A stretch of DNA of 64,000 bases from Thermodesulfobacteriota bacterium (GTDB taxonomy: Bacteria; Desulfobacterota; Desulfobacteria; Desulfobacterales; SURF-7): NCBI GenBank assembly GCA_049320885.1, contig JBMORA010000017.1:64001-128000 (forward strand). Reading direction: 5' to 3'. The notes under the pieces were generated by a model. It did not search any database, was not told where the DNA came from, and saw only the letters and a list, made by a program, of their open reading frames with translations. A program made the translations under genes and the position numbers. The number at the start of each line of letters is the position of its first letter. The first letter of the stretch is position 1. Shown one piece after another: positions 20,345-27,728 of the stretch.

Positions 20345-21952
20345 ATGATGCCGAATTCCACTGCCCGTATCCGCAATCCGCTGTTGCTGCACCTTGCCCT
20401 GCTGATTGTTCTGGTCGTCGGGGCCCTTGTCGCGGCGACATTCTGGATCGGCAGGGAGCTCCGCGAAGAGGTGTTCACCCGGTTTGTCACCGTTGCAACG
20501 GAACAGGCCCGCAAAGAATTCCATGCCTGCTTTTCGCCCATGACCGACACGCTGGCCCTGGTGCGGGGCTGGGGCCGGGCCGGGGACCTGGATGTCACCG
20601 ACACGGTCGCCTTGAACGCCCGATTCATGCCATTCCTGGAAATGCATACGGACCTGTCGGCGATTTTGCTGGCCCGTTCGGACGGGGTCCTCTATTTCCT
20701 CCTGCACAACGGCGGCGAATGGCTTACGCGTTCCCAGACAGAGCCGCAGAACCCCGGCGCAGCCGTATGGCGCAGATGGAAAGGTCCCGGGGAAATCCTG
20801 GACGAGCGCCGGGCGGATGACGGCGTCGACCCCAGGCAGCGGCCCTGGTACCAGGGCGCTCTGGAGCAGGGGCAGGGGGGCGGCATCTTCTGGACATCCC
20901 CTTATGTGTTTCAAACCCTGCGGCAGCCGGGCGTCACCCTGGCCGTCAGCTGGAATGACGGGCATCACACCTACGTCGCCGCCTTTGACGTGCTGCTGGA
21001 TCGGATTGCCGAAGCGGTGCGCACCGTGGGGCAGCGCCAGGAGGACAAGGTGTTTCTGGTGACCGACCGATGGACCATTTTCGATGCGTCGGGGCGGCCG
21101 GCTGCCGGAAAGCAACCCGCCCCCGTGGAAGCGTATTTCCATTCGCCGGCCACCTATCCTGCGCCGGGGGTCGCGGCGGCGGTGGCTGCGTGGCAGCAGC
21201 GGGGCAGGCAGGCGGCCGCCGCGTTCCGCTACACCGCCCAAGGGGAGCCGTTCTGGGCCGGATTCCAGTCGCTGGGAGGGCCGGGCCGCCTGTGGCTGGG
21301 CTGCTGCCTGCCGGAGCGCGCGCTTTCGGAAAGCATGGGAAGTCGCCGCGGGCCGTATTTCGTGGCGGTGGGTCTGATCCTGGCGGGCGCCGGAGCCGCG
21401 GCCTGGATGCTGGTCCGCCGCCATAGCCGCCGCCTGCAGCAGATGCCGGCCAGGCTCCTGGAGGGGGCCGACCCGGTCCAGGCCGCCCTGGAAGTGATTC
21501 GTTCCGGGGAAAGCGACACCGTTGAATTCAAATCCACCATGCGCATGAACCTGCATACCGGCAAGCCCGGCAAGGAAATGGAACTGGCCTGGCTGAAAAC
21601 CGTGGCGGCGTTCCTGAATACCAGCGGCGGCATCCTGTTTTTCGGCGTCGGCGATGACGGCGCCGTCCTGGGCATGGAAGCGGACGGATTCCCCAGCGGG
21701 GACAAATGCCGCCTGCATTTCGAGAACCTGATCAGCCAGCACATCGGCATGGAGCATGCCCGCTCCCTCCGATTCACCATCCTGTCCATTGACGGAAAAT
21801 CGGTCGGAGCGGTCGCCTGCGAACGCTCGGACTCCCCGGTTTTTCTGAAAACCTCCAAGGAGGAGGCTTTTTACATCCGCTCCGGGCCGTCCAGCATTCA
21901 GCTGCCGGTCAGCAAGGTCCTGTCGTATTTGAAAAACCCTTCCAATTTTTGA
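20345..21952 (+). CDS. Membrane protein: TM-Cache-like periplasmic sensor-TM-Schlafen/AlbA_2 domain
   Basis: TM1 LLLHLALLIVLVVGALVAATFW; Cache-type DPRQRPWYQGA...FWTSPYVF...PGVTLA...FDVLL; TM2 YFVAVGLILAGAGAAAWMLV; AlbA_2 motifs GESDTVEFKST...KTVAAFLNTSGGILFFGVGDDG...FYIRSGPSS. Confidence 0.85.
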   Translation: MMPNSTARIRNPLLLHLALLIVLVVGALVAATFWIGRELREEVFTRFVTVATEQARKEFHACFSPMTDTLALVRGWGRAGDLDVTDTVALNARFMPFLEMHTDLSAILLARSDGVLYFLLHNGGEWLTRSQTEPQNPGAAVWRRWKGPGEILDERRADDGVDPRQRPWYQGALEQGQGGGIFWTSPYVFQTLRQPGVTLAVSWNDGHHTYVAAFDVLLDRIAEAVRTVGQRQEDKVFLVTDRWTIFDASGRPAAGKQPAPVEAYFHSPATYPAPGVAAAVAAWQQRGRQAAAAFRYTAQGEPFWAGFQSLGGPGRLWLGCCLPERALSESMGSRRGPYFVAVGLILAGAGAAAWMLVRRHSRRLQQMPARLLEGADPVQAALEVIRSGESDTVEFKSTMRMNLHTGKPGKEMELAWLKTVAAFLNTSGGILFFGVGDDGAVLGMEADGFPSGDKCRLHFENLISQHIGMEHARSLRFTILSIDGKSVGAVACERSDSPVFLKTSKEEAFYIRSGPSSIQLPVSKVLSYLKNPSNF

Positions 21953-22271
21953 TAATGGCAATGACTTCTCTGATATAGGCGCATTCGCATTCAGCGGGGC
22001 ATGATCGCAGCTCATCTTGGTACAGGCAGTATCCCGGGCATTTTTCCGTATGGGTTGCTTTCACCTGGAAAATCGGACCATCATAGAGGTCAACGAATTC
22101 CGAAGCGGGAATCGTCAACGTGCCTTTACAGGAATGGTTGAAGTAAAGAGAACCGGATTCGAGCCTTTTAAAATTCGCCTGATAACCGATTATGGTAATC
22201 ATGGGATCACGTAAAAACGTATCACGGCAATCCCATTCAAACCCGCAATTGTTGCATTTTTTGAATGGCAT
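21909..22271 (-). CDS. Small cysteine-rich hypothetical protein
   Basis: 120 aa with 9 Cys (CxxC at N-terminus, HxC, CPGYC, CxxxCxC); AGAGGA upstream. Confidence 0.7.
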   Translation of the reverse strand: MPFKKCNNCGFEWDCRDTFLRDPMITIIGYQANFKRLESGSLYFNHSCKGTLTIPASEFVDLYDGPIFQVKATHTEKCPGYCLYQDELRSCPAECECAYIREVIAIIKNWKGFSNTTGPC

Positions 22272-22325: not shown

Positions 22326-22733
22326 CTATGGCAGCATCGCCGGTTTCCGGTCGCTCCAGGGAAGGGCTCTCTCCAGCTGGGCCGCGAGCTGCAGGAGGGT
22401 GGCCTCGCCACCGAAACGGCCGAAGAATTGCACGCCGCAGGGCAGGCCGTCCGCGGTCCAGTGCAGGGGCACGGACATGGCGGGCTGACCGGTGATGTTG
22501 GCGATCATGGTCAGGGGCATCTGGCCCTTCATGGTATTGTGCAGCATCTCCTCCAGAATGGCATAAGTGATTTTCCGGCTGCCTGTCAGAATGCTGCCCA
22601 TCGGCGAAGAAAGGATCCTCATGGCCAGGCGGTCCGTCATTCCCGGTTTTTGGGAGCCCACCGTCACCGGCGGCCTTCCCAGGGTGGGGCAGAGGAGCAT
22701 GTCGAAGCGTTCATACTCGGAAAAAGCGCCCAT
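22326..22733 (-). pseudogene. C-terminal fragment of an amidase-signature family enzyme
   Basis: FDMLLCPT...[26 protein letters not shown]...[17 protein letters not shown] is the amidase C-terminus; only 135 aa, with no GGSSGG signature. Confidence 0.8.
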
Positions 22734-23462: not shown

Positions 23463-23598
23463 CCATTGAAAATTCCGCGCTTCCATTTGTTTTCAAGACG
23501 CCCCGTCCGGGAGGACGGCCATGGGAAGCCGGTGCGGCTCCCATTTGCCGACGACCCGTCACCCTAGCCCAACCGCCAAGCGATCATCGGGAGGAACC

Positions 23599-24057
23599 AT
23601 GAAATACATTTCTCTTGTGGTGTTATCCGTTGTGTTGGCGTTGTGCCGCACCCCGGACGGCCGGGCTGAATCCGGATTCGTCGGCACGGTGAAGGCGGTC
23701 AAACCCGATGCGTTTCTCATCCGCCGGGGCATGACCATGACCGCCTCGGCCCATATGAAAATCATGATCGGCGACGTGGTCAGAACCGGAGCGAACGGGT
23801 CCGTGGGGTTCATTCTGAAAGACGATACCGTCATATCCATGGGGCCGGACAGTGAGATCGTCATCGATGATTTCGTTTTCGATCCGGCGGGTAAAAAGCT
23901 GTCCTTTATTGCCAGGCTGTACCACGGGACGGTGGCGTATATCTCCGGCCAGATCGCCAAATTATCCCCCGAATCCGTTCGATTCGAAACCCCGGTGGCG
24001 ACCATCGGCATGCGGGGGACGCGCTTTCTCGTCGCCATCGACAAGTCAACACCGTAA
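23599..24057 (+). CDS. FecR-domain secreted protein
   Basis: Signal peptide; GDVVRTGANGSV...DDTVISMGPDS...TPVATIGMRGTRF; GGAGGA RBS before ATG 23599. Confidence 0.9.
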   Translation: MKYISLVVLSVVLALCRTPDGRAESGFVGTVKAVKPDAFLIRRGMTMTASAHMKIMIGDVVRTGANGSVGFILKDDTVISMGPDSEIVIDDFVFDPAGKKLSFIARLYHGTVAYISGQIAKLSPESVRFETPVATIGMRGTRFLVAIDKSTP

Positions 24058-24123
24058 GCGGCCGGACGGCCAAACCGAAGCCGGAAACCGCGGGATTTCA
24101 CCCGCCATAAGGATGATGTTCCC

Positions 24124-24744
24124 ATGAAGACAAACCAGAACCGGTTGATGCGGCTGCTGTTCTTGCCGCTGTTGTTGCTGATGATGGGGCCCGCCGGATG
24201 CAGCCGCAAAAACATGGTTGTCCTGATGCCGGAAAAAGACGGTTCCAAATCGGGAATCGTGGTCTCCAACCAGGCCGGCAGTGTTGAAATCGATTCCCCC
24301 TATCACGCGACCCGGGTCCAGGGCGCCAATTCCCCACCAGATCCGGCGGCGGCCGTGGATCAACAGGAGATCCAGGCGGTTTTCGGTCAGGCCCTGGCCG
24401 TTCAACCGGAGCCTCCCGTCCATTTTATCCTGTATTTCGAAAGCGTTTCCACGACCCTCACCCCTGAGTCGTTGAAAACCTTGCCGACCATCGTCGAAAC
24501 CATCCACGCCAGGGATTCGGTGGATGTCGGCATCGTGGGACATACCGACACCGCCGGCGACAAGGACTACAACCGGCGCCTGTCCACCCGGCGGGCGGAG
24601 GCGGTGGGCCAATTGCTGGTGGAACGGGGTGTCAGGACGGAATGCCTGGAAATTTCCTCCCACGGCGAGGAAAATCCCATTGTCGTAACCGCGGACGATG
24701 TAAACGAACCCAGAAACCGCAGGGTGGAGGTGGTTGTCCGGTGA
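24124..24744 (+). CDS. OmpA-family (peptidoglycan-binding) lipoprotein
   Basis: AGC lipobox; GHTDTAG...YNRRLSTRRAEAV...HGEENP...NRRVEV. Confidence 0.93.
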   Translation: MKTNQNRLMRLLFLPLLLLMMGPAGCSRKNMVVLMPEKDGSKSGIVVSNQAGSVEIDSPYHATRVQGANSPPDPAAAVDQQEIQAVFGQALAVQPEPPVHFILYFESVSTTLTPESLKTLPTIVETIHARDSVDVGIVGHTDTAGDKDYNRRLSTRRAEAVGQLLVERGVRTECLEISSHGEENPIVVTADDVNEPRNRRVEVVVR

Positions 24745-24824
24745 ACCGCCCGTTCCCCTGATTCCAGAGCAGTCATGGCCGGTTCCTTACTTTTACAGGC
24801 GGCGGAAGTTTCTTCCATTCATGT

Positions 24825-27728
24825 ATGGTGCAAGCATCTTTTTCTCACATATCCGATCGAATGCTTTTGGGCCTTGGGTTGGCGTTGACCATCTTCCTGA
24901 TCGGGATATATCTGGCGAACCCCTTTTTCGTCCGTTTCTTCAACCATAGAATCACCGACGTCATGATGGCGTCTTCCCCACCGAAACCCGTTTCCGGAAA
25001 GGTGGTGGTGGTGGATATCGACGGGGAAAGCCTGGCCCGATACGGCCAGTGGCCCTGGTCCAGAGACCGCCTGGCGGAGCTGCTGGAAAAAATCAACGCA
25101 CACGGCGCTGCCAGCATCGCCCTGGACATGATCCTCGCGGAACCCGACAGGACTTCCCCGGTGGTGCGGCATGCCATCCGGCCGGAGGATGACGGCCGGA
25201 ATATGGGGCTGCCGTCCGGCCTTGCCGATCACGATGCGGCTCTGGCCAGGATCTTGGCCGGCGGTCCCTTTGTTCTCGGGTTCGAATTTCTGTTCGGCGA
25301 TGAAAGGGCCGGCGGGGCTTCCTGCCGGCTGCATCCGGTGAACGTGATCTGGGTGGACGATCCGGTCCCAGCGGATTCGTCGGCAGGGTTTTTCACCGCC
25401 GGGGATGTGGATTGCAGTCTCCACCGCCTGGCGGCCGCCGTAACCTATTCCGGATTCCTGAACGCCACACCCGATTCCGACGGCATTCTGCGACGGGCGC
25501 CGCTGCTGATCCGTTATGGAAACCGCCTGTTTCCTTGCCTGGCGCTGGCAAGCCTGCTGCGGTCCGAAGGCGCGGGTCAGATCCGGTACGGGACGGAACG
25601 ATACGGGCGGCGCTATGCGGGTTTGGCCCGTACCCGGATTCCCGTGGACCTGAAAGGGAACATGGCCGTCAATTTCGCCATCAGGACCGGCGATATCCGG
25701 CGGGTTTCGGCGGCGGACATTCTCGGCGGCGGTCTGGGAGCGGATGTCTGCAAGGGCAGGTTCGTTATTGTCGGTTTGTCGGCATCCGGTTTGAAACACA
25801 CCTACCAGACGCCCGTCAACCCTGTTTCCGCCCATGCGGACATCCATGCCCAGGTGTTGGAGACCATCCTGACGGATGCATTCATTGTCCGGGGGCAGGA
25901 TTTCGTCCTTTGGGAGTCGTTGTTCGGCATGGCCATTTCGGTATTGTTCAGCCTGTGCATCCTGAGACTCGGTTTCGCATGGAATGCGGCGATCGCCGTT
26001 GCGGCGGCAGCGGGTATCTGGCAGGGGGCCAACGCGGTCTTCCGGGACACCGGTTTTCTGTTTTCTCCCCTGTTGCCCCTGGCCGTGCTGCCGTTCGATT
26101 ATGCGGTTTTGACAATCGTCAAATACTGGAAAAGCCAGCTCGAAGCCAGGCGGACAACGGAAAATACGCTGGTGCTGCTGAAGGCGAGCGAGCAAAAACT
26201 GAACACCATCATCCAGACCATTCCGGATATCGTTTTCCTGCTGGACCCGGCGGGGCGGATCACTTTTGTCAGCCGGGCGATACGGAAATACGAGACCGAG
26301 CCCGGGGCGTTGATCGGTCAGCCCATTCTGGACCTGATCATCCCCGAGGACAGAACCAGGGCCGTGCACAAGATCACCGAACGGAGAACCGGGGTCAGGG
26401 CCACATCCGCCATGGAGCTGCGCATGGTATGGCGGGAACCCCGGAAGGGTGAGGCCGAATTCCGGTATTTCAGCGTATCGGCCGAGGGGGTGTACCGGGA
26501 AGAAAACAGCGGCAATCGCTTGTTCATCGGGACCCAGGGGATTGCCCGGGACATCACCGACCAGAAGAAGATCGAACACCAGCTCCAGCAGGCCCAGAAA
26601 ATGCAGACCATCGGAAACCTGGCCGCCGGTGTGGCCCATGATCTCAACAATGTCCTCGGGGGCCTGGTCACCTATCCGGAGCTGCTGCTGCTGGAACTGC
26701 CGCCGGACAGTCCCCTGCGCTCCAAAATCGCCCTCATCCAGAGGTCGGGCCAGAAGGCCGCCTCCATGGTGCAGGACCTGCTGACCCTGGCCAGGCGCGG
26801 CGTTTCCGTGGATGAAATCTTCCAGTTGAATACGGTTATCCGGGACTACCTGGCTTCACCGGAATTCGACGCCATCCGGCGCCACAATCCCAAGGTGCGG
26901 GTGGAAACCCGGCTTTCCGATGAACTCCTGAATGTCAAAGGCTCTCCGGTTCATCTGTCCAAGGTGCTGATGAACCTGATCCATAATTCCGTTGAGGCCA
27001 TGCCGGCGGGAGGGTGCATTTTACTTACCACCGACAATATCTATGTGGATGCCCCGGTGACCGCCTATGAAACCATTCCGGAAGGGGAGTATGTCCGTCT
27101 GGGCATCGCCGATGAGGGCGTCGGTATCGCCCGGGAGGATTTGAAACGGATATTCGATCCCTTTTATTCGAAAAAAGTCATGGGTAAAAGCGGAAGCGGT
27201 CTGGGAATGACCGTGGTGTGGGCCTCGGTAAAGGATCATGGCGGGTATATCGATCTCCAGAGCCGTGAAGGCGAGGGGACCCGGTTCGACATTTATCTGC
27301 CGGCGACCCGGCAGGCGGCCGGGGAAAAAAGCCGCCCCATCGTGCTGGAGGACTATGTCGGAACCGAATCGGTCCTGGTCATCGATGACATCCCCGAACA
27401 GCGCGAGATCGCCGCGAAATTTCTCGGCAAGCTCGGCTATCGGGTTGAAACCGCGCCCAGCGGCGAGACCGCCGTCGAGTATCTGAAGGGACATCCCGTT
27501 GATCTGCTGGTGCTGGACATGATCATGCCCGGGGGGATGGACGGCCTGGAAACCTACCGGAAGATCATCGCGAACCACCCGGGACAGAAAGCCATCATCA
27601 CCAGCGGCTATTCCGAATCCGGGCGCGTCAGGGAACTCCAGCAGCTGGGGGCCGGGGACTATGTCCAGAAACCCTATACGCTGGAGAAGATCGGAGTTGC
27701 GGTCCGGGGAGCCCTGGACAGACGGTAG
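24825..27728 (+). CDS. CHASE2-PAS hybrid sensor histidine kinase with receiver
   Basis: VVVDIDGESLARYGQWPWSR (CHASE2), PDSDGILRR, three TM segments, PAS, LAAGVAHDLNN, GSGLGM, C-terminal REC. Confidence 0.93.
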   Translation: MVQASFSHISDRMLLGLGLALTIFLIGIYLANPFFVRFFNHRITDVMMASSPPKPVSGKVVVVDIDGESLARYGQWPWSRDRLAELLEKINAHGAASIALDMILAEPDRTSPVVRHAIRPEDDGRNMGLPSGLADHDAALARILAGGPFVLGFEFLFGDERAGGASCRLHPVNVIWVDDPVPADSSAGFFTAGDVDCSLHRLAAAVTYSGFLNATPDSDGILRRAPLLIRYGNRLFPCLALASLLRSEGAGQIRYGTERYGRRYAGLARTRIPVDLKGNMAVNFAIRTGDIRRVSAADILGGGLGADVCKGRFVIVGLSASGLKHTYQTPVNPVSAHADIHAQVLETILTDAFIVRGQDFVLWESLFGMAISVLFSLCILRLGFAWNAAIAVAAAAGIWQGANAVFRDTGFLFSPLLPLAVLPFDYAVLTIVKYWKSQLEARRTTENTLVLLKASEQKLNTIIQTIPDIVFLLDPAGRITFVSRAIRKYETEPGALIGQPILDLIIPEDRTRAVHKITERRTGVRATSAMELRMVWREPRKGEAEFRYFSVSAEGVYREENSGNRLFIGTQGIARDITDQKKIEHQLQQAQKMQTIGNLAAGVAHDLNNVLGGLVTYPELLLLELPPDSPLRSKIALIQRSGQKAASMVQDLLTLARRGVSVDEIFQLNTVIRDYLASPEFDAIRRHNPKVRVETRLSDELLNVKGSPVHLSKVLMNLIHNSVEAMPAGGCILLTTDNIYVDAPVTAYETIPEGEYVRLGIADEGVGIAREDLKRIFDPFYSKKVMGKSGSGLGMTVVWASVKDHGGYIDLQSREGEGTRFDIYLPATRQAAGEKSRPIVLEDYVGTESVLVIDDIPEQREIAAKFLGKLGYRVETAPSGETAVEYLKGHPVDLLVLDMIMPGGMDGLETYRKIIANHPGQKAIITSGYSESGRVRELQQLGAGDYVQKPYTLEKIGVAVRGALDRR

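Follow-up and report, generated by a model that had tools for sequence, protein, structure and literature searches.

A gene in the window (the whole stretch of 64,000 nucleotides that was analysed) encodes a protein, P0001, in which an extracytoplasmic sensor of the double Cache (dCache) fold, placed between two transmembrane (TM) helices, is joined to a Schlafen/AlbA_2 domain. The order of the domains, both helices, the two folds and an invariant set of catalytic residues were established by sequence comparison and structure prediction. The reading that we favour, with a confidence just short of even, is that of an inner-membrane one-component receptor in which a small molecule on the outside would control a cytoplasmic Schlafen endoribonuclease, in nutrient or stress signalling rather than in phage defence. 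Judged from the pocket motif, the ligand would most likely be an amino acid or an amino-acid-like compound. Bacterial transmembrane receptors ordinarily act through motility control, phosphorylation, second messengers or DNA binding. If the favoured reading is true, direct control of an RNase by such a receptor would extend this list by a further class of output.

Coordinates of the receptor gene, its parts and an example of the adjoining cca gene (window positions, except where a locus is named)
Feature	Position	Strand	Basis or remark
TM-dCache-TM-Schlafen receptor gene (P0001), 535 aa	20345..21952	+	stand-alone, without conserved partner gene
TM1, residues 13-31 (predicted)	20381..20437	+	Kyte-Doolittle hydropathy 2.9; AF2 helix 10-78
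Extracytoplasmic double Cache domain, residues ~36-332	20450..21340	+	Pfam dCache_1, Foldseek, VIA-align
Distal ligand pocket (putative): V161, R166, W168, Y187, D215	20825..20989	+	alignment to PctA 5ltx
TM2, residues 339-357 (predicted), followed by a basic RR-H-S-RR stretch	21359..21415	+	hydropathy
Short helical cytoplasmic linker	21416..21493	+	Pfam (no HAMP match), hydropathy, AF2
Cytoplasmic Schlafen/AlbA_2 domain, residues ~384-530, sole output domain	21494..21934	+	Pfam, VIA-align
Schlafen catalytic motif E389-x4-E394-x-K396 and D437 of GVxDD	21509..21655	+	conservation; motif according to the available portions of PMC13056530 and PMC13462974
Example of the cca gene	L004:9611-10855	convergent	loci L003-L077 (20 gammaproteobacterial)

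An earlier note on this DNA had described a TM1-Cache-TM2-Schlafen protein with four sequence motifs, and all of them were found where they had been placed: RPWY at residues 166-169, WTSPY at 183-187, G388-E389-x4-E394-F-K396 and G434-V-G-D437-D438. In the Pfam scan, SLFN_AlbA_2 (PF04326) matched residues 389-520 well above its cut-off (E 3e-19, 70.1 bits, cut-off 25.3), whereas dCache_1 at residues 97-248 (E 2.7e-6, 27.5 bits) stayed under its cut-off of 45. At E<=0.1, Pfam showed neither HAMP nor any kinase, cyclase or MCP domain in P0001, which agrees with the claim that the Schlafen domain stands in the place of a kinase, cyclase or MCP output, and the AF2 model leaves no room for a further canonical output domain. 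NCBIfam and PADLOC models gave no match for P0001, and a scan for promoters and terminators stayed at chance level.

Both TM segments are present in 111 of 117 aligned close homologues and in 128 of 134 distant representatives. The family-mean charge at the N-terminus is 3.2 K/R versus 0.1 D/E, and after TM2 it is 3.9 versus 1.0. From the basic N-terminus and the basic stretch past TM2, a topology is predicted with the N-terminus inside, the Cache domain outside and the Schlafen domain inside, that is with the two domains on opposite sides of the membrane, as had been supposed. The stretch between residue 358 and E389 has a length of 30-31 aa in 116 of the 117 homologues.

With the alignment of 117 sequences as input, AF2 gave a model with a mean pLDDT of 90.7 and a pTM of 0.68; for the Schlafen domain alone, predicted from its single sequence, the pLDDT was 41. 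By VIA-align, residues ~36-332 of the model matched PscC 6mni (Z 19.3, rmsd 3.0, 229 aligned) and PctA 9koo (Z 18.7), and Foldseek also matched the Cache part to PscC (E 4e-9). Residues ~364-535 of the full-length model matched DIP2311 3lmm (Z 13.8, rmsd 3.4, 147 aligned), and the C-terminal part also matched SAMD9 7ksp (Z 13.3) and SLFN11 7fex (Z 9.7). The C-terminal domain thus models as a Schlafen domain, as the note had proposed.

Among 8000 scored candidates, 255 proteins had a length similar to that of P0001, and of the best 120 nearly all spanned the whole query at 32-46% identity. In GTDB genomes a relative was encoded in 359 of 389 pattern matches; the best 80 of the 359 come from Chromatiaceae, other Gammaproteobacteria, Desulfobacterota, Kiritimatiellota/Verrucomicrobiota, Calditrichota, Myxococcota and Bacteroidota. 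Cultured hosts include Oleidesulfovibrio alaskensis G20, Pseudodesulfovibrio, Thiocapsa and Desulfosarcina, and full-length homologues are present in the complete genomes of Desulfosarcina widdelii and Desulfoluna limicola. P0001 could be aligned end to end with the Desulfoluna limicola protein (L059; 34% identity, E 4e-113) and with L022 of Marichromatium (38%). An assembly chimera, named in the note as a possible objection, is ruled out by these alignments and by the full-length homologues elsewhere, complete genomes included. One contig of sequencing run X1, which is possibly the source of the same DNA, covers the entire stretch; two runs of another study gave pieces of the stretch only, and none of the listed pieces crosses TM2. 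The sequencing runs listed as containing it included no RNA dataset.

A HMMER search made with no word index yielded 150 representatives at 50% identity among the matches listed, of which 134 are at least 470 aa long. E389, E394, K396 and D437 are shared without exception by all 117 close homologues and by all 134 of these listed full-length representatives, so that the acidic site residues seen by the note (E389, E394 and D437) are indeed in place. Several other Schlafen residues are as constant, or nearly so, in the listed representatives (R400, K418, N425, D453 and H458 in 134/134; E413, E507 and R512 in 133/134). In the same 134, pairwise identity averages 52% for the Schlafen domain but 22% and 18% for the two halves of the Cache domain, a contrast that may be somewhat inflated, since the profile used to rank the representative sets by similarity is itself most conserved in the Schlafen domain. 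An invariant catalytic E/E/K/D set beneath a drifting sensor argues for an RNase that is gated by the sensor.

The amino-acid motif of dCache_1AA sensors consists of Y121, R126, W128, Y144 and D173 of PctA, according to the available portions of PMC8915833. Alignment to PctA 5ltx places these opposite V161, R166, W168, Y187 and D215, respectively; P0001 therefore keeps four of the five residues, Val161 replacing the first tyrosine. Of the 117 close homologues 101 have a tyrosine at this position, as do 77 of the 134 distant listed representatives. The full five-residue motif is carried by 96 of the 117 close homologues, and this frequency, together with 11 proteins of the same family among the motif carriers catalogued before (see below), speaks for the gated RNase. 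Among the distant listed representatives the strict motif drops to 60 of 134 (70 of 134 with Phe allowed in first place), which indicates that the ligand is not uniform across the family. Judged by these residues, amino acids are the probable ligands of the core family, and the distant branches probably have altered pockets; the Val at the first motif position and the lower count in distant members tell against an amino-acid ligand.

By its sequence, the Cache domain of P0001 is like dCache_1AA and not strictly one. A double Cache domain between two TM segments and the R/W/Y/D equivalents are there, while the Pfam dCache_1 score lies below its cut-off, despite the strong fold match, and the equivalent of Y121 is missing. 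Purine (dCache_1PU) and amine (dCache_1AM) pockets were considered and set aside, D215 and the R-x-W start suiting the amino-acid motif better in a comparison with the available portions of PMC11245519 and PMC10589655 that was not made position by position. In this genome and in its relatives, related Cache sensors are joined to outputs of the HD-domain phosphohydrolase, histidine-kinase, GAF and sigma-54 activator types; one of them is 24% identical to the Cache domain of P0001. The sensor of P0001 would thus come from ordinary signalling stock, which favours a role in ordinary signalling.

The nearest Schlafen domains outside Cache proteins were found on receiver, receiver plus Ser/Thr kinase, cNMP-binding, BrxL, DUF262/GmrSD and type I HsdR proteins. 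Closest are those fused to receiver and receiver-kinase domains, and this kinship points to ordinary signalling as well. Next come those on DUF262/GmrSD, type I HsdR and BrxL proteins, at 41-50% median identity to the P0001 domain (median 44% for the DUF262-fused ones). In a FastTree tree of 108 Schlafen domains and 161 columns with an arbitrary root, 46 of the 47 sampled Cache rows clustered with four receiver/kinase rows (SH-like 93), and the DUF262, HsdR, BrxL and cNMP rows stood apart. With a support below 95 and the root arbitrary, a signalling branch descended from defence-linked domains is hypothetical, and the defence proteins that carry the next-closest domains, the low support and the 161 columns all weigh against the ordinary-signalling reading.

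The related Schlafens on receiver, receiver plus Ser/Thr kinase and cNMP-binding domains (P0214, P0425, P0436, P0444, P0201, P0205) are possible signalling-controlled RNases in their own right, and those of the same subfamily at the C-terminus of BrxL, DUF262/GmrSD and type I HsdR proteins (P0200, P0379-P0486) are perhaps back-up tRNases. A second membrane-anchored type of ~255 aa (P0219, P0230, P0233 and their kin) has a hydrophobic, probably membrane-spanning N-terminus followed by the Schlafen domain. Two odd fusions, one of GNAT, a partial sensor and Schlafen (P0366) and one of a 7TM-like part and Schlafen on a 1.9-kb contig (P0431), may be assembly artefacts. This genome has four more PF04326 matches, all elsewhere; the three examined were of the common Slfn/HATPase_c_4 type, and one of these three genes adjoins a type I specificity subunit.

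We infer the ligand, dimerisation, activity, substrate and role of P0001 from these comparisons, and the favoured mechanism would run as follows. The ligand would occupy the distal Cache pocket through R166, W168, Y187 and D215 of a receptor acting as a dimer. Other dCache receptors work as dimers. The signal would travel along TM2 and the fixed linker of ~30 residues to the Schlafen domains, which would shift between closed and open states, comparable to the effect of ligand binding in CbCash. The active form would use a divalent metal to cleave structured RNA, probably tRNA, and translation would slow down. The dormancy or RNase output that the note had suggested is likewise hypothetical. 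The favoured mechanism lends itself to direct tests, since a validated motif predicts the class of ligand, the catalytic mutants are obvious and there are cultured hosts.

The note knew of no characterised protein with this architecture. That statement holds in the literature searched, but the architecture had already been catalogued in two supplementary tables, apparently as an uncharacterised class, and was not first found here. The domain-annotation supplement of PMC13056530 (Perez Taboada et al. 2026; MOESM4, apparently Supplementary Table 2) contains a class pSlfn12, 'Cache.pSlfn', of 25 proteins with the same composition as P0001. Its Desulfoluna limicola member is L059, and P0001 belongs to it by class definition and by homology, having PF04326 above the cut-off, the Ex4(E/D)xK motif and the Schlafen fold of a pSlfn. 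In the available portions of the paper pSlfn12 is only a table class, outside the four architectures tested there, and the main text mentions neither Cache nor membrane, transmembrane or periplasm. The same portions report that 69.6% of all pSlfn lie near a defence gene and that the 30.4% away from one may have non-immune roles. Under the favoured reading, P0001 would show a non-immune job for Schlafens and be the first concrete case for that 30.4%.

The second table is Dataset S2 of PMC8915833 (Gumerov et al. 2022), in which 'AlbA_2,dCache_1' stands for 11 proteins among the carriers of the amino-acid motif. They belong to the same family, with rows that include L022, L050 and L064, and P0001 differs from them by the Val in place of the first Tyr. 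The main text mentions neither AlbA nor Schlafen, and the outputs given for dCache_1AA in the available portions are chemoreceptors, kinases, cyclases, phosphodiesterases and phosphohydrolases. In the full-text literature no test or discussion of the Cache-Schlafen architecture was found, a search that had supplements 11, 13-19 and 22-26 of PMC13056530 outside its scope and beside which unseen work may exist. The word 'Cache' is absent from the six supplements of the Cash paper PMC13462974.

RorSlfn5 (Slfn plus Ig-like) and EcoSlfn7 (DUF262-Slfn) are likewise sensor-fused Schlafens with Ex4(E/D)xK in the available portions of PMC13056530. The catalytic motif of P0001 equals this site, which is required for tRNA cleavage in RorSlfn5 and CbCash (PMC13056530 and PMC13462974, available portions). 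The DUF262-fused domains are near that of P0001, EcoSlfn7 itself lying outside the comparison. Both proteins are anti-phage, with class defence scores of 0.69 and 0.76 versus 0.36 for pSlfn12, RorSlfn5 has a phage tail chaperone as its trigger, and a membrane segment is mentioned for neither (PMC13056530, same portions). The P0001 family is a distinct variant of the sensor-fused Schlafens because its sensor faces outward. Cash (CbCash, Slfn plus Csx15) is a Schlafen tRNase gated by a small molecule; it has an E-D-K triad and switches from a closed to an open state, according to the available portions of PMC13462974. Cash responds to the intracellular ligand cA4 of type III CRISPR, and unlike P0001 it is a soluble dodecamer or filament. 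P0001 has a Cache sensor and no Csx15 domain, and no CRISPR link was seen in the window. In sensor fold, pocket and two-TM layout it resembles PctA, PscC, Mlp24 and the Aeromonas diguanylate cyclase 7k5n, from which it differs by a nuclease domain as output instead of an MCP, kinase, cyclase or phosphatase and by having no HAMP match. Eukaryotic IRE1 is also a transmembrane receptor with an RNase output; its domains (luminal sensor, kinase, KEN RNase) are unrelated and it serves as an analogy only.

The receptor gene is flanked by a gene for a DUF4136 lipoprotein and by a convergent 120-aa Cys-rich ORF, and the wider surroundings in the window consist of lipid, lipoprotein and signalling genes. 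None of 17 window proteins matched PADLOC and no Cas match was found among these 17. At 80 related loci, neighbours were called with a simple gene scorer and 531 dereplicated proteins were scanned with PADLOC. Matches at E<=1e-10 were obtained for 35 of the 531, which through their clusters touch 47 of the 80 loci. This raw figure reflects mostly housekeeping cross-matches; UvrA, TatD, PLD, OmpA, RecN-like and 5'-nucleotidase proteins were confirmed as such. After the remainder had been sorted by hand, from model names and partial coverage and with no matched control, 13 specific-looking defence matches were left in 8 of 80 loci (6 of the 50 with at least 6 kb on both sides). The crude gene caller, the manual sort and the lack of a matched control weaken any argument from neighbours. 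A MADS defence gene (PADLOC mad3/mad8) that seemed to lie beside the Thiocapsa and Thiorhodococcus copies was rejected, being a double-length UvrA; this protein of ~1880 aa gives the same false defence signal at L012:10418-16120 and nine related loci.

The recurrent neighbours are cca, pepA/lptF, uvrA, pqiAB, tatD and a PLD, and truA, adk, recN and ruvB are further housekeeping genes among the neighbours. A conserved partner gene or operon was looked for and dismissed: no neighbour cluster spans phyla, and of 81 loci only 15 have a close same-strand neighbour upstream and 10 have one downstream. In 20 loci, all from the gammaproteobacterial clade, a gene for multifunctional CCA addition/repair lies convergently downstream, within ~40 bp in 15 loci and at 0.65-1.2 kb in 5; five of five tested cca genes passed the NCBIfam cut-off. 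The arrangement places a tRNA-repair enzyme beside a putative tRNase. A functional link is less likely here than a single ancestral arrangement within one clade, convergent genes being unable to be co-transcribed. The adjacency is thus probably one ancestral arrangement, and its retention across one clade indicates long residence at one site. Housekeeping neighbours, a single copy and a gammaproteobacterial clade that has kept cca at ~20 loci favour ordinary signalling.

Of 151 Chromatiaceae genomes sampled, of unstated completeness, 45 matched; 43 of these carry the fusion as a single copy each, and two match with one half only. The distribution of the gene is patchy: none of the 17 relatives from the family of this genome has the fusion. 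The receptor gene has a GC content of 0.649, above 99% of 1401 long ORFs, and the genes that surround it are scattered in two congeners. A quick IQ-TREE tree of the fusion, comprising 79 of 81 rows after two partial genes had been left out, mixes phyla, with the gammaproteobacterial copies as one clade (SH-aLRT 99). Patchy spread, high GC and mixing of phyla are typical of mobile genes and count against the ordinary-signalling reading. A plasmid collection gave no close match, only 11 distant Schlafens at <37% identity, and a phage collection no match to P0001; this lack of close plasmid or phage matches points the other way. So does the defence score of pSlfn12, 0.36, which we take to mean that 9 of 25 members have a defence-gene match no more than 10 kb away, against 69.6% for all pSlfn; the eight largest classes, pSlfn1-8, score 0.56-0.85.

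The patchy, transferred look of the gene also suits a receptor for abortive infection against phages or competitors, in which the Cache domain would detect infection or the lysis of neighbouring cells in the periplasm, through amino acids or peptidoglycan fragments set free there or through a phage protein, and would unleash the tRNase, as in pSlfn5 and pSlfn7. We consider this unlikely. It is true that the pSlfns shown to work, RorSlfn5, EcoSlfn7 and CbCash, are all defence effectors with the same motif in the available portions of PMC13056530 and PMC13462974, which speaks against ordinary signalling too, that sister Schlafen domains sit on DUF262, HsdR and BrxL proteins, that nine of the 25 pSlfn12 members do have a defence-gene match nearby, and that a variable sensor on a constant nuclease would fit defence equally. 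Against it stand the location of the gene outside a defence island in the window, the specific-looking defence neighbours in so few of the related loci after manual sorting, the conserved nutrient-type pocket and the locus beside cca that was kept for a long time. In addition, 15 of the Cache-Schlafen rows in the PMC13056530 table were examined, and 8 of these have defence matches, each of only one or two isolated genes. The one-component receptor of the earlier note is supported, while its abortive-infection branch is weakly supported, given the 0/17 window proteins, the 8/80 loci and the class score.

Improbable to a similar degree is a membrane-tethered RNA-binding regulator or narrow-target enzyme that would bind or nick one RNA (an mRNA leader, an sRNA or a single tRNA) without toxicity. 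The many non-catalytic residues that are invariant or nearly so suggest a fixed partner or substrate, and the gene persists stably as a single copy. On the other hand, the full catalytic set found in 134/134 listed representatives would be superfluous in a pure binder, and no neighbouring target is conserved across phyla. A membrane-bound DNA-binding regulator like ToxR/CadC, suggested by the database labels 'putative DNA binding domain' and 'HTH regulator' and by the related SAMD9 domain solved with DNA (7ksp), is very improbable.

The ligand-gated RNase receptor can be placed in a wider scenario, which we offer with a little more reserve than the receptor function itself. The Schlafen tRNase lineage of the restriction-type defence proteins DUF262, HsdR and BrxL may have been recruited once to everyday signalling, in the Cache, receiver and kinase fusions; the receptor would read extracellular amino acids and directly gate the cleavage of tRNA or other RNA, tuning translation to outside nutrients in sulfur-cycling and anaerobic bacteria.

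Three further features of the window were observed downstream of the receptor gene. The 120-aa Cys-rich ORF (21909-22271, reverse strand) overlaps the 3' end of the receptor gene and has no match in Pfam, NCBIfam or PADLOC. An ORF of 135 aa (22326-22733, reverse strand) matches only the C-terminal end of an amidase (PF01425 396-445) and is probably a gene remnant. At 23521-27728 on the forward strand lies a cassette of FecR-like, OmpA and CHASE2-PAS hybrid histidine kinase genes, parts of which recur in both congeners.
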